From the IMG/VR virus record IMGVR_UViG_3300027708_000019: a stretch of 64,000 nt of DNA; one strand, given 5' to 3'. Below are positions 22,376-24,609 of this stretch, in pieces. A model generated the notes under the pieces. The model saw only the letters and a program-made list of their open reading frames with translations, was not told where the DNA came from and did not search any database. Each line of letters begins with the position of its first letter. Within the stretch, counting starts at the first letter, position 1. The translations under genes and the position numbers were made by a program. Source of the DNA: a virus.

Positions 22376-22456
22376 TTATTTCACTGGTTTTGGTTCAGGT
22401 GACTTTTCATTCACCCAATCCCAATCATCATCTGTCATTGGGATCCAGTTGTTCAT
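22376..22456 (-). CDS. 26-aa peptide MNNWIPMTDDDWDWVNEKSPEPKPVK
   Basis: ATGA-coupled to the upstream ORF and followed by a hairpin. Confidence 0.45.
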   Translation of the reverse strand: MNNWIPMTDDDWDWVNEKSPEPKPVK

Positions 22457-22569
22457 CTTCCAATACCTCTTGTTATTGCATCCGCACGTGCTTTGCGTGC
22501 TTCACCAATTGATTCAAGAATTGATTTGAAAAATGTACCAATTAGTTTAAAGAGTTTCAGTGATCGCAT
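22453..22569 (-). CDS. 38-aa amphipathic peptide
   Basis: MRSLKLFKLIGTFFKSILESIGEARKARADAITRGIGR, overlapping the hsp20 3' end. Confidence 0.4.
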   Translation of the reverse strand: MRSLKLFKLIGTFFKSILESIGEARKARADAITRGIGR

Positions 22570-23044
22570 CTTGCTCTTCCTCTGTTAGAAGTTGTTTCTT
22601 AGATGCTTTCGCGTCTTTCACTTCAATCTTTTTTGGCTTTTTGTGTTCAGGAATAACACGCTCTAAGAAAATCTTTAGCATGCCATTGAACATTTCCGCA
22701 TCCTTAATTTCTGTTTGATCATTAAGTGCGAATGTACGAGTAAACGCACGATTAGCAATACCTTTGAAGACATAGTCAGAACCATCTTCTGCAGTAGTAC
22801 CCTTAACAATCAACTTGTCTCCATCAATCTCAATCTCGATGTCTTGCTTAGCAAAGCCAGCAACAGCGATCTCAATGACATACTTGTTCTCGTCTGTCTT
22901 CTTGATGTTGTAAGGTGGGTAGTTTGGGATATTTTTTGTTAGATCATCATGTAGTTTTGCTAGTTGATTGAATTGCTCATCAAAACCAACAAACACTCTA
23001 TCAAAGTCTTGACCGAAAATGGTCGGAATGAATTTATGTACCAT
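22547..23044 (-). CDS. hsp20: Small heat-shock protein Hsp20 (IbpA-like)
   Basis: NYPPYNI, EIAVAGF, GIANRAFTRTF, GMLKIFLERVIPE; AGGAG SD before MVHKF. Confidence 0.95.
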   Translation of the reverse strand: MVHKFIPTIFGQDFDRVFVGFDEQFNQLAKLHDDLTKNIPNYPPYNIKKTDENKYVIEIAVAGFAKQDIEIEIDGDKLIVKGTTAEDGSDYVFKGIANRAFTRTFALNDQTEIKDAEMFNGMLKIFLERVIPEHKKPKKIEVKDAKASKKQLLTEEEQDAITETL

Positions 23045-23306
23045 AAGTTTTCTCCTATTAAGCGAGTTAGAAAAACCCTCAAGCAATCCCCGAAAGCGAT
23101 TGAAGAGAGCCATATTAAATACTGGTTACGATTCCAGCGATATCGTGACGCCATATCCGCTTTATGCGATTCGTTACTTAGCGGTCCTAAGGTGAATCCA
23201 AATTAGTGGGGGTTCTGGGCTGGTTTCCCCCAACCAGTTTATCCTAGAGTATTACGTCGCGATAGGACTAGGTTCCATCTTTGACGTTCCCATCCCTGAG
23301 AATCGT
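23045..23306 (-). ncRNA. Candidate structured RNA (several hairpins and pseudoknots) between pqqA and hsp20
   Basis: Complementary pairs CCUAG/CUAGG, ACGUC/GACGU, CUGGUU/AACCAG with a GGGGG loop matching downstream CCCCC, GAUUC/GAAUC, CUUAG/CUAAG, CCGC/GCGG, GAUAU/AUAUC, CUGG/CCAG. Confidence 0.45.
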
Positions 23307-23378
23307 TTAGCGATTGGCTACGTACATTGTAATTTCAAAGCCAAAACGCATTTCCGTTGCAGTAGGTTTAGTCCACAT
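23307..23378 (-). CDS. pqqA: PQQ precursor peptide PqqA (23 aa, [23 protein letters not shown])
   Basis: W-x-x-P, RFGFE-x-T-M-Y (ExxxY) and terminal NR; canonical length; GGAG SD 8 nt upstream. Confidence 0.9.
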
Positions 23379-23465
23379 GTTTTCATCTCCGTATATGTCC
23401 GATTTGGACAATAATACTTATTGCCCGAAGGCAAATAAATGGCTAATGAAAATCATTAAAATCTA

Positions 23466-23744
23466 CTAACTGTTTTTATTTATATTATCAAACTTCATCA
23501 AAGCAAGTTGCCTTGCTAAAAAAAGTCTAAATTTTACATGTGCACTAAGATCTGTATCTGTATCTTCTTGAACAATTTTTGGACGACGATAGGGTGATTG
23601 AATATCTAGTTCATCAAACCAATCGTCATCATCGTCATCAATTTCTAAATTACTTAGAAGTTGCTGTTGCTTTCTTTGTGTCCTTGGTAGGTGTAGCTTG
23701 ACTTTTAGTGGCTGCTTTAGCAGCGTCCTTTTCTTTCTTGGCTT
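23466..23744 (-). CDS. Overlapping open frame without a canonical start (acidic patch, C-terminal RLFLARQLALMKF helix)
   Basis: 93-codon frame shifted +1 relative to 23650-23949; no in-frame ATG/GTG/TTG before the protein-like part. Confidence 0.4.
   Translation of the reverse strand, partial: KPRKKRTLLKQPLKVKLHLPRTQRKQQQLLSNLEIDDDDDDWFDELDIQSPYRRPKIVQEDTDTDLSAHVKFRLFLARQLALMKFDNINKNS
23477..23484 (-). promoter_or_regulatory. T4 late promoter TATAAATA upstream of pqqA
   Basis: Exact T4 gp55 consensus about 100 nt upstream of the pqqA ATG; UUCG hairpin at about 23421-23434 in the leader. Confidence 0.6.
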
Positions 23745-23949
23745 CTACCTTTGCCTTAGCATTTGCAGCTGCTTTCTCTTGAACAGAAGTTGGAGCATGT
23801 TTCGCTTCATCTTTCTTAGCAACTGGTTTCTTTGTCTCAGCTTTTTTGGCTGGGGCAGTAGCTGCTGGTTTTGGTTCAGGTGATTTGGCTGGTTGAGCAA
23901 ATGATACTGTTGCTACTGAAAGTGCTACGATTGCGATAAGATTTTTCAT
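23650..23949 (-). CDS. Signal-peptide-bearing Lys/Ala/Pro-rich protein
   Basis: MKNLIAIVALSVATVSFA signal peptide followed by a low-complexity basic tail. Confidence 0.7.
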   Translation of the reverse strand: MKNLIAIVALSVATVSFAQPAKSPEPKPAATAPAKKAETKKPVAKKDEAKHAPTSVQEKAAANAKAKVEAKKEKDAAKAATKSQATPTKDTKKATATSK

Positions 23950-24134
23950 GATTGCGTTTCCTCATTAGTTGAAGTTTGGATTTCCTGCGCTTCTTGGATC
24001 GCTTTCCATTGTGGTACAGCTTGATTGCGTAACTTCTCAATTAAGCCACTTACTTTGATGTATGGTTGTTCGCCAAGCGCAGATAACACAAGATCAACCT
24101 CATCAACATTAAGATTCAATTTAATAATACTCAT
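23946..24134 (-). CDS. Hypothetical protein
   Basis: ALGEQPY..V..LIEKLR.QA.PQ small phage protein pattern. Confidence 0.65.
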   Translation of the reverse strand: MSIIKLNLNVDEVDLVLSALGEQPYIKVSGLIEKLRNQAVPQWKAIQEAQEIQTSTNEETQS

Positions 24135-24186
24135 AATTTCCTACTCTCCATAGTAATATAACGCTACAGCATTATAATTGGTTGAC

Positions 24187-24609
24187 TTACTTCTTAACTT
24201 TTTTCCCAATATTATACTTGGGTACAAGTTCCCATTCGTCTTTCTCTTTGAAAGACAATACTTTAATTTGTGACAATGATGCTTGTGGTTCAGCTTCTGC
24301 TGGTTTTATAATTTTCAACAGTCCCCAATCTTGAAGCAACACAGCAACTGTGTTCCTACGTTCAATATCATTGTTTGTTAAATTTGATTCTTTTCCATCC
24401 AAAGCAAATAGTTCTTTGAAATGCACCAAGAAATATCTACCCTGTTTGTGTAGAATATGACATGACTGAAACAACTTATGCTCTTTACGTGATGCGATCC
24501 CAATACGTGTCAATGTTTCCTTAATCTTAAGGAAATTGTCTGGTTCTGGGAGTGTCACTTCGAGCATACTGTCTGATGTCCAATCATAATAAACAGTTTC
24601 AACACTCAT
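24187..24609 (-). CDS. regA: RegA translational repressor
   Basis: FLKIKETLTRIGIAS, QSCHILHKQGRY, HFKELF. Confidence 0.97.
   Translation of the reverse strand: MSVETVYYDWTSDSMLEVTLPEPDNFLKIKETLTRIGIASRKEHKLFQSCHILHKQGRYFLVHFKELFALDGKESNLTNNDIERRNTVAVLLQDWGLLKIIKPAEAEPQASLSQIKVLSFKEKDEWELVPKYNIGKKVKK

Follow-up and report, generated by a model that had tools for sequence, protein, structure and literature searches.

A stand-alone pqqA gene in a T4-like freshwater phage and its likely role in PQQ precursor supply to Methylophilaceae hosts

Results

Genomic context of the pqqA locus

The viral DNA analysed here is a 64,000-nt stretch (IMG/VR record IMGVR_UViG_3300027708_000019; hereafter the window) with a GC content of 35–43%. 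All of its genes lie on the minus strand, and the gene set is that of a T4-like myovirus. It includes replication genes (regA, gp62 and gp44 for the clamp loader, gp45 for the clamp, the family-B polymerase gp43, and an exonuclease), recombination genes (a gp46/47-type nuclease, UvsW, and UvsY), and capsid genes (gp23, a gp22-type scaffold, a prohead protease, and the gp20 portal). By DNA, the best phage match to the window is the Methylophilales phage Melnitz, and the runs that contain the stretch are metagenomes from lakes and freshwater. At 99% identity, the locus is also present in G001, the nearest IMG/VR record, which is 102.5 kb long and 62% complete.

A short open reading frame (ORF) encoding PqqA, the peptide precursor of the cofactor PQQ, lies within the replication module (Table 1). 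Its immediate neighbors are a small secreted Lys/Ala-rich ORF, located downstream of regA, on one side and hsp20 on the other. Viral genes therefore enclose it on both sides, with regA, gp62, and gp44 upstream and hsp20, the exonuclease, and gp43 downstream. The spacer between pqqA and hsp20 has only weak terminator-like sites, and its conserved block is 82–89% identical in nucleotide sequence to the corresponding regions of three related contigs (L060, L082, and L258). This block, located just upstream of hsp20 on the minus strand, is richer in GC, includes a CTTAG/CTAAG hairpin, and may serve as a leader element of hsp20. An Rfam search gave no match in the window at the gathering thresholds and none around the locus at E ≤ 1. 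In most T4-like relatives (L029, L035, L039, L067, L078, L108, L110, L119, and L121), pqqA is immediately followed by a strong terminator, a GC hairpin plus T-run, and thus forms a unit of a single gene. The window, L060, and L082 have no such terminator, and the conserved non-coding block leads into hsp20.

Table 1 Features of the pqqA locus in the window
Feature	Position	Strand	Remarks
hsp20 (small heat-shock protein), downstream neighbor	22547..23113	-	PF00011, 1.5e-17; syntenic with pqqA in T4-like relatives
pqqA–hsp20 non-coding spacer	23114..23306	-	No clear terminator; block 23122–23205 conserved in relatives
pqqA coding sequence	23307..23378	-	23 codons plus stop; ATG at 23378–23376, TAA ending at 23307; Glu15 and Tyr19 form the ExxxY pair
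Shine-Dalgarno sequence GGAG	23387..23390	-	8 nt 5' of the pqqA ATG
Small hairpin just before the Shine-Dalgarno sequence	23397..23409	-	4-bp stem, 5-nt loop
TATTAT, putative sigma-70 -10 box	23411..23416	-	27 nt downstream of the palindrome; inferred
UUCG-loop hairpin	23421..23434	-	5-bp stem; not conserved in relatives
Perfect 6-3-6 palindrome TAATGA-TTT-TCATTA, host-type pqqA control box	23444..23458	.	15 bp; sole copy in the window
TATAAATA, T4-type late-promoter consensus	23477..23484	-	Exact; 98 nt upstream of the ATG
regA translational repressor, upstream neighbor	24187..24609	-	PF01818, 9.8e-48; marks the T4-like replication module, with gp62, gp44, gp45, and gp43 nearby

Identity and integrity of the ORF

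The original prediction, made from the sequence alone, was that a stand-alone minus-strand ORF of 72 nt with a GGAG ribosome-binding site encodes PqqA. The frame is indeed intact, and an identical ORF is present in G001. We ran the profile searches that had been proposed as a check, using the translated peptide without the stop codon (window:23310-23378:-). The peptide scored 40.4 bits against PF08042 (cut-off 21.1, E 2.7e-10) and 41.8 bits against the equivalog model TIGR02107 (cut-off 20, E 6.5e-11). Both scores are about twice the curated cut-offs and far beyond chance for a 64-kb window. The gene also has the form expected of pqqA: it is a short independent ORF in the range of about 20–40 codons with its own ribosome-binding site, and it encodes the ExxxY motif, whose Glu15 and Tyr19 are the two residues that become PQQ. 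The window ORF is thus confirmed as a real, intact pqqA. In a longer, 34-codon version that starts at TTG, the extra residues add nothing to the model match. Homologous peptides start with Met directly before the conserved Trp or 1–2 residues (Lys/Ala) upstream of it, and an AGGAG/GGAG-like Shine-Dalgarno sequence is found at the same place in all pqqA homologs. Between the two cross-linked residues, the window peptide has Ile16, a residue that is absent from the 127 bacterial copies sampled and occurs in only a few viral PqqA copies. We assume that the Ile16-bearing peptide is a fully competent substrate.

Three metatranscriptome runs from lakes yielded contigs that align to the window with no mismatch, which places the locus in RNA libraries and says only that it is present there. 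X12, one of these contigs, runs from 22382 to 23457 and contains hsp20, the spacer, the whole of pqqA, and the leader as far as the palindrome. Two further contigs, spanning 23372–24141 and 23355–23634, cover the leader and promoter region and only the first bases of pqqA. These are assembled contigs that carry no information on strand, start site, level, or infection state, and DNA carry-over is possible. Gaps (e.g., over gp44) and differences in depth among them are uninterpretable, and we draw no conclusion from them.

Stand-alone state of the gene

The original prediction noted no pqqBCDE in the window, and this holds. A tblastn search of the window and 127 viral loci (together 1.1 Mb) with PqqB, PqqC, PqqD, and PqqE of Acinetobacter gave no match. 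In 27 of 120 bacterial loci the same probes detected pqqB-E of Methylophilaceae, at 42–67% identity, and the viral negative is therefore meaningful. The probes were taken from L008 (CAKLQF020000010.1), a bacterial contig mislabeled as 'Acinetobacter phage MD-2021a', which is a stretch of chromosome with fur, ppk, pqqABCDE, and a dipeptidase gene. Since L008 is not a phage, its pqqA match was not counted as viral. Family searches of G001 and four larger viral records, G002, G004, and G005 among them, likewise found no true pqqE or pqqC. The absence applies to an incomplete genome, as the window is partial and G001 is 62% complete, and the rest of the genome could carry pqqB-E. Among the 120 bacterial loci with the same peptide core, 93 are also without pqqB-E within 8 kb. 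The lack of linkage to pqqBCDE does not disqualify the phage gene, because orphan copies of pqqA are normal in Methylophilaceae and the partner enzymes are expected in the host.

Conservation and selection of pqqA in viruses

A tblastn search of GenBank phages returned 12 records, 10 of which are true methylophages, and all 10 carry pqqA: Venkman, MEP301, MEP401, MEP402, P19250A, four Melnitz genomes, and one phage from spring water. In most of these records the gene is unannotated, or an ORF on the opposite strand is called in its place. Degenerate-pattern scans of IMG/VR found at least 144 contigs with pqqA, at least 120 with a core pattern in which residues 9–19 are fixed and 24 more with a pattern of the N-terminal half. 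All viral copies found begin with a start codon preceded by a ribosome-binding site and end at a stop after 23–25 codons. The 23-codon copies comprise 108 distinct DNA sequences that encode only 39 peptides. Over these 108 sequences pN/pS is 0.13 with synonymous sites near saturation, a value to be read with the caveat that residues 9–19 were fixed by the first search pattern, for which the N-terminal-half pattern serves as an independent control. With a pattern that leaves out Glu15 and Tyr19, these two residues and the stop were kept in 126 of 126 viral homologs. Conservation of this pair in related phages, which the original prediction demanded, is thus complete in this sample. Taken as a pattern of substitutions, these data indicate that viral pqqA is under purifying selection.

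Conservation of the position next to hsp20 and regA had also been anticipated, and it extends to diverged T4-like relatives. Thirteen T4-like contigs have pqqA in the same module (gp45, gp44, gp62, regA, hsp20, and gp43), and their neighboring proteins are only 33–80% identical to those of the window.

L176, a contig binned as part of a Methylobacillus MAG, has two pqqA copies about 180 nt apart and shares an identical upstream region with L121, a T4-like viral contig. L176 is probably of phage origin, with a tandem pqqA, and was placed in a bacterial MAG by the binning. G003 (L130/L131, the contig of L043) is a 72-kb viral contig that is rated 20% complete and possibly derives from a giant phage.

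Sequence link to Methylophilaceae

The peptide pattern had been read as betaproteobacterial, with a methylotroph as the probable host, and the distribution of the core motif among Methylophilaceae and other Betaproteobacteria fits this prediction. In a scan for the core with one genome per prokaryote species, 63 of the 80 matches listed have titles naming Methylophilaceae or Methylophilales; the other matches listed comprise 16 with higher-rank labels (Burkholderiales, Betaproteobacteria, etc.) and one Acidovorax. Six PqqA peptide variants are identical between viruses and bacteria, the commonest of which accounts for 26 viral and 51 bacterial copies. The window peptide matches the nearest bacterial PqqA at 20 of 23 positions. 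The phage host is most likely a methanol-oxidizing member of the Methylophilaceae.

For the family of one such host, 60 of 61 sampled genomes contained pqqE, usually as a single copy, and pqqA was present in all 41 examined for it, in 1–9 copies each and in three copies even in 1.3-Mb genomes. The maturation enzymes are therefore available in likely hosts, which have themselves expanded only the gene for the precursor. Beck et al. (2014) described 3–12 copies of pqqA and a single pqqBCDEFG in Methylophilaceae (PMC4109929). No nucleotide similarity to host DNA was found beyond the ORF and about 15 nt on either side of it. Recent raw capture from a host was rejected on the ground that the similarity ends so close to the gene.

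A host-type palindrome upstream of pqqA

The palindrome upstream of the window gene is found before pqqA of Methylophilaceae as a 17-bp box of 7-3-7 form. Its core was located ahead of the gene in 50 of 118 bacterial pqqA copies, compared with a background rate of about 1% per 150 nt. The strict core occurs at only 6 of 124 viral loci, and a relaxed form, defined as the left half-site plus the T-run, is needed to see the viral signal. This form precedes 52 of 145 viral pqqA copies (36%; median position -88; background 1.1%), including those of P19250A, MEP301, and Melnitz, and 71 of 109 bacterial copies (median -124; background 0.8%). Bacterial copies often have one more half-site, the third, about 7 nt beyond the palindrome (consensus from L132–L251).

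Three host genomes have 6–8 palindrome sites each, compared with 0–1 for the reversed control. Genes that follow the sites include copies of pqqA, the pqqB operon, and a rhodopsin gene of the proteorhodopsin type, the last in two streamlined, Ca. Methylopumilus-like genomes of the Methylophilaceae (L289, L276, and L286; host genomes G006 and G026). This distribution suggests a single regulon for PQQ synthesis and light-driven energy in the hosts. Besides the sites before pqqA, pqqB, and the rhodopsin gene, the resolved sites include single matches before unrelated genes, and several sites were unresolved. The palindrome resembles the E. coli Fur box, but the idea of a Fur site was dropped, as no iron-uptake gene follows any resolved site in the three host genomes. 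A search for a regulator beside a host pqqA yielded no response regulator, just an orphan PAS histidine kinase and a fragment of an integrase.

Because the sequences surrounding the palindrome in phage and host cannot be aligned, its presence in both is attributed to selection and not to recent transfer. From its sequence, the palindrome suggests that a host regulator also acts on the phage gene. We tentatively propose, as a possibility that falls somewhat short of an even chance, that phage pqqA is wired into the host PQQ regulon, in which case the host regulator would time its reading and the supply of precursor would follow the energy or methanol signal of the host and not only the phage program.

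Leader and promoter signals

Two further upstream elements of the original prediction are present but carry less weight than was given to them. The exact T4-type late-promoter box TATAAATA occurs three times in the window against 3.97 expected, a count not above chance, and a similar box lies upstream of pqqA in only 2 of 13 T4-like relatives. None of the three copies lies within a gene, and all are in coding-strand orientation; one of them stands before the gp22 scaffold gene. A late promoter before pqqA is plausible, and transcription of the gene probably starts at or upstream of this box. The UUCG-loop hairpin exists as described, but it is not conserved in relatives. A structured leader as a whole was discarded, since the leader folds no better than shuffled sequence (whole-leader z = -1.07). 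The small hairpin before the Shine-Dalgarno sequence has a positional counterpart with different stem letters in three close relatives (L029, L060, and L082), too few sequences for statistics. Boxes resembling a -10 element are located 22–27 nt after the palindrome motif of the relatives. A second conserved leader motif, CTCAAGGTAGAC ... CTCTACTGA, in which GTAGA and TCTAC are able to pair, lies upstream of pqqA in another subgroup of T4-like methylophage contigs (L035, L039, L065, L067, L078, L108, and L121).

Discussion

We consider it likely that the ORF is a functional phage pqqA from Methylophilaceae-type hosts, and that it serves as an auxiliary metabolic gene supplying the consumable PQQ precursor to host PqqBCDE. 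Here we infer translation and processing of the peptide and a benefit to the phage. During infection, the phage would make the 23-residue precursor, and PqqD/PqqE of the host would cross-link its Glu15 to Tyr19. Host PqqB, PqqC, and a protease would then complete PQQ, which would be loaded into periplasmic methanol dehydrogenases (XoxF/MxaF), so that PQQ-dependent methanol oxidation could continue during infection. According to established PQQ biochemistry (Barr et al. 2016; Zhu and Klinman 2020), one PqqA is consumed per PQQ, and PqqB-E are catalytic. A T4-like infection is expected to cut off host transcripts. The phage would thus carry just the consumable part, because PqqA alone is consumed one-for-one and its host transcripts are expected to be lost. 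Reports on engineered production suggest PqqE or PqqB/C as further possible limits on PQQ output (PMC9851590).

Several other explanations of the gene were weighed. The original prediction had itself allowed for a decoy, that is, a peptide that occupies PqqD/PqqE of the host without giving PQQ and thereby lowers host PQQ and methanol oxidation. The three differences between the window peptide and the nearest bacterial copy, including the Ile16 not seen in bacteria, could be taken in this sense; however, the other two changes, Ala21 and Arg23, are also found in bacterial PqqA that is linked to an operon, the Glu15/Tyr19 pair does not vary among the 126 copies, and several viral peptides are letter-identical to host PqqA. 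Moreover, one viral contig with pqqA encodes a full PQQ-dependent dehydrogenase, which would need more PQQ and not less, and we regard inhibition of the host pathway as highly improbable. The same contig (G003) is a reason to consider that the peptide feeds a phage-encoded PQQ enzyme instead of the host dehydrogenases: alongside pqqA, it has an open frame (about 625 aa; 608 bits, TIGR03075) that encodes a PQQ-dependent alcohol/methanol dehydrogenase, and Baikal viruses have been reported with a methanol dehydrogenase (PMC7678222). As searches of the window, of G001, and of the regions flanking the other viral pqqA copies gave no dehydrogenase of this type, and most phages with pqqA have genomes of 35–45 kb without one, we regard this explanation as very unlikely.

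The gene might also be a neutral passenger, a piece of host DNA or the remnant of an attachment site left by recombination, with no function for the phage. The many dispersed pqqA copies of the hosts are possible frequent partners for recombination, and in Venkman pqqA is antisense to its neighbors. A scar of this kind would not be expected to show a pN/pS of 0.13 with near-saturated synonymous change, nor an intact ORF, Shine-Dalgarno sequence, and stop in every copy. The gene also recurs across several phage types that are unrelated to each other, one of its carriers being a T4-like genome of lytic type, and host nucleotide similarity stops about 15 nt outside the ORF. A passenger without function has, in our judgment, an equally small chance of being correct as a supply to a phage enzyme. 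Least probable of all is that the locus works mainly as DNA, with the palindrome titrating the host pqq regulator and the ORF being secondary. The palindrome is the pqq box of the host and occurs once in the window, exactly at pqqA, but 64% of viral pqqA copies are without even the relaxed motif and all of them keep the ORF under purifying selection. We retain supply of the precursor to the host enzymes as the preferred explanation.

Phages of Methylophilaceae, a family abundant in lakes and coastal seas, carry the consumable part of PQQ synthesis almost routinely, and this recurrence suggests that the supply of cofactor may be a bottleneck for methylotrophy in infected cells. A parallel is provided by psbA of cyanophages, which encodes D1: there, too, the phage carries only the fastest-consumed part of a host energy system, and the host supplies the rest. 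D1 is a structural subunit that turns over, whereas PqqA is a substrate peptide that is converted into a cofactor, and the benefit, demonstrated by experiment for psbA, is proposed for pqqA.

Viral pqqA is already known, and the window gene is a further, well-supported member of this group. The first report, by Coutinho et al. in 2020 (Microbiome 8:163, PMC7678222), described PqqA in VP_266, a T4-like virus population of Lake Baikal with about 35% GC; Methylophilaceae were predicted as hosts, and PqqA was proposed to be an auxiliary metabolic gene for methanol oxidation. The window phage is likewise a freshwater, T4-like, low-GC virus with a predicted Methylophilaceae host and a proposed auxiliary metabolic role for PqqA, and it may be the same virus as VP_266 or a sister of it. 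The earlier report differs in that the gene was described in one population, together with a viral methanol dehydrogenase; no such enzyme was found in the window. It also states that phage P19250A has none of these genes, which is contradicted by the unannotated pqqA that we found in this phage (L004) by tblastn. A 2026 study of sediment listed viral pqqA, pqqD, and pqqE among phosphate-solubilization genes (PMC13188868). In the papers on Melnitz, MEP301, and MEP401/402, pqqA goes unmentioned. The gene is below the length that gene callers pick up, and most GenBank annotations do not include it.

What the present analysis adds is modest: a host-type control box that is shared with phage pqqA. 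The box offers a concrete connection of phage gene and host regulon that can be tested, and cultured pairs exist (OM43 with Melnitz, Venkman, or MEP phages; LD28 with P19250A). Orphan chromosomal pqqA copies of Methylophilaceae resemble the window gene in length and core, in some cases encode a peptide identical to a viral one, lie away from pqqBCDE, and have the same palindromic box upstream (PMC4109929). The window copy differs from them in its location in a phage replication module, in the position of the box (about -80 instead of about -124), in the added T4-type late box, and in Ile16. The pqqA genes of cultured methylophages (Melnitz, Venkman, MEP301, MEP401/402, and P19250A) are also stand-alone, with 23–24 codons and 73–83% peptide identity to the window copy, and Melnitz, like the window phage, is a T4-like myovirus. 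These phages differ in being marine or other-lake isolates and in having other pqqA neighbors, such as tRNA genes and recombination genes. In Melnitz-1 (L002), pqqA lies just before tRNA-Leu, and a hypothetical ORF on the opposite strand is annotated over it; in Venkman (L003), the gene is antisense to the whole early operon.
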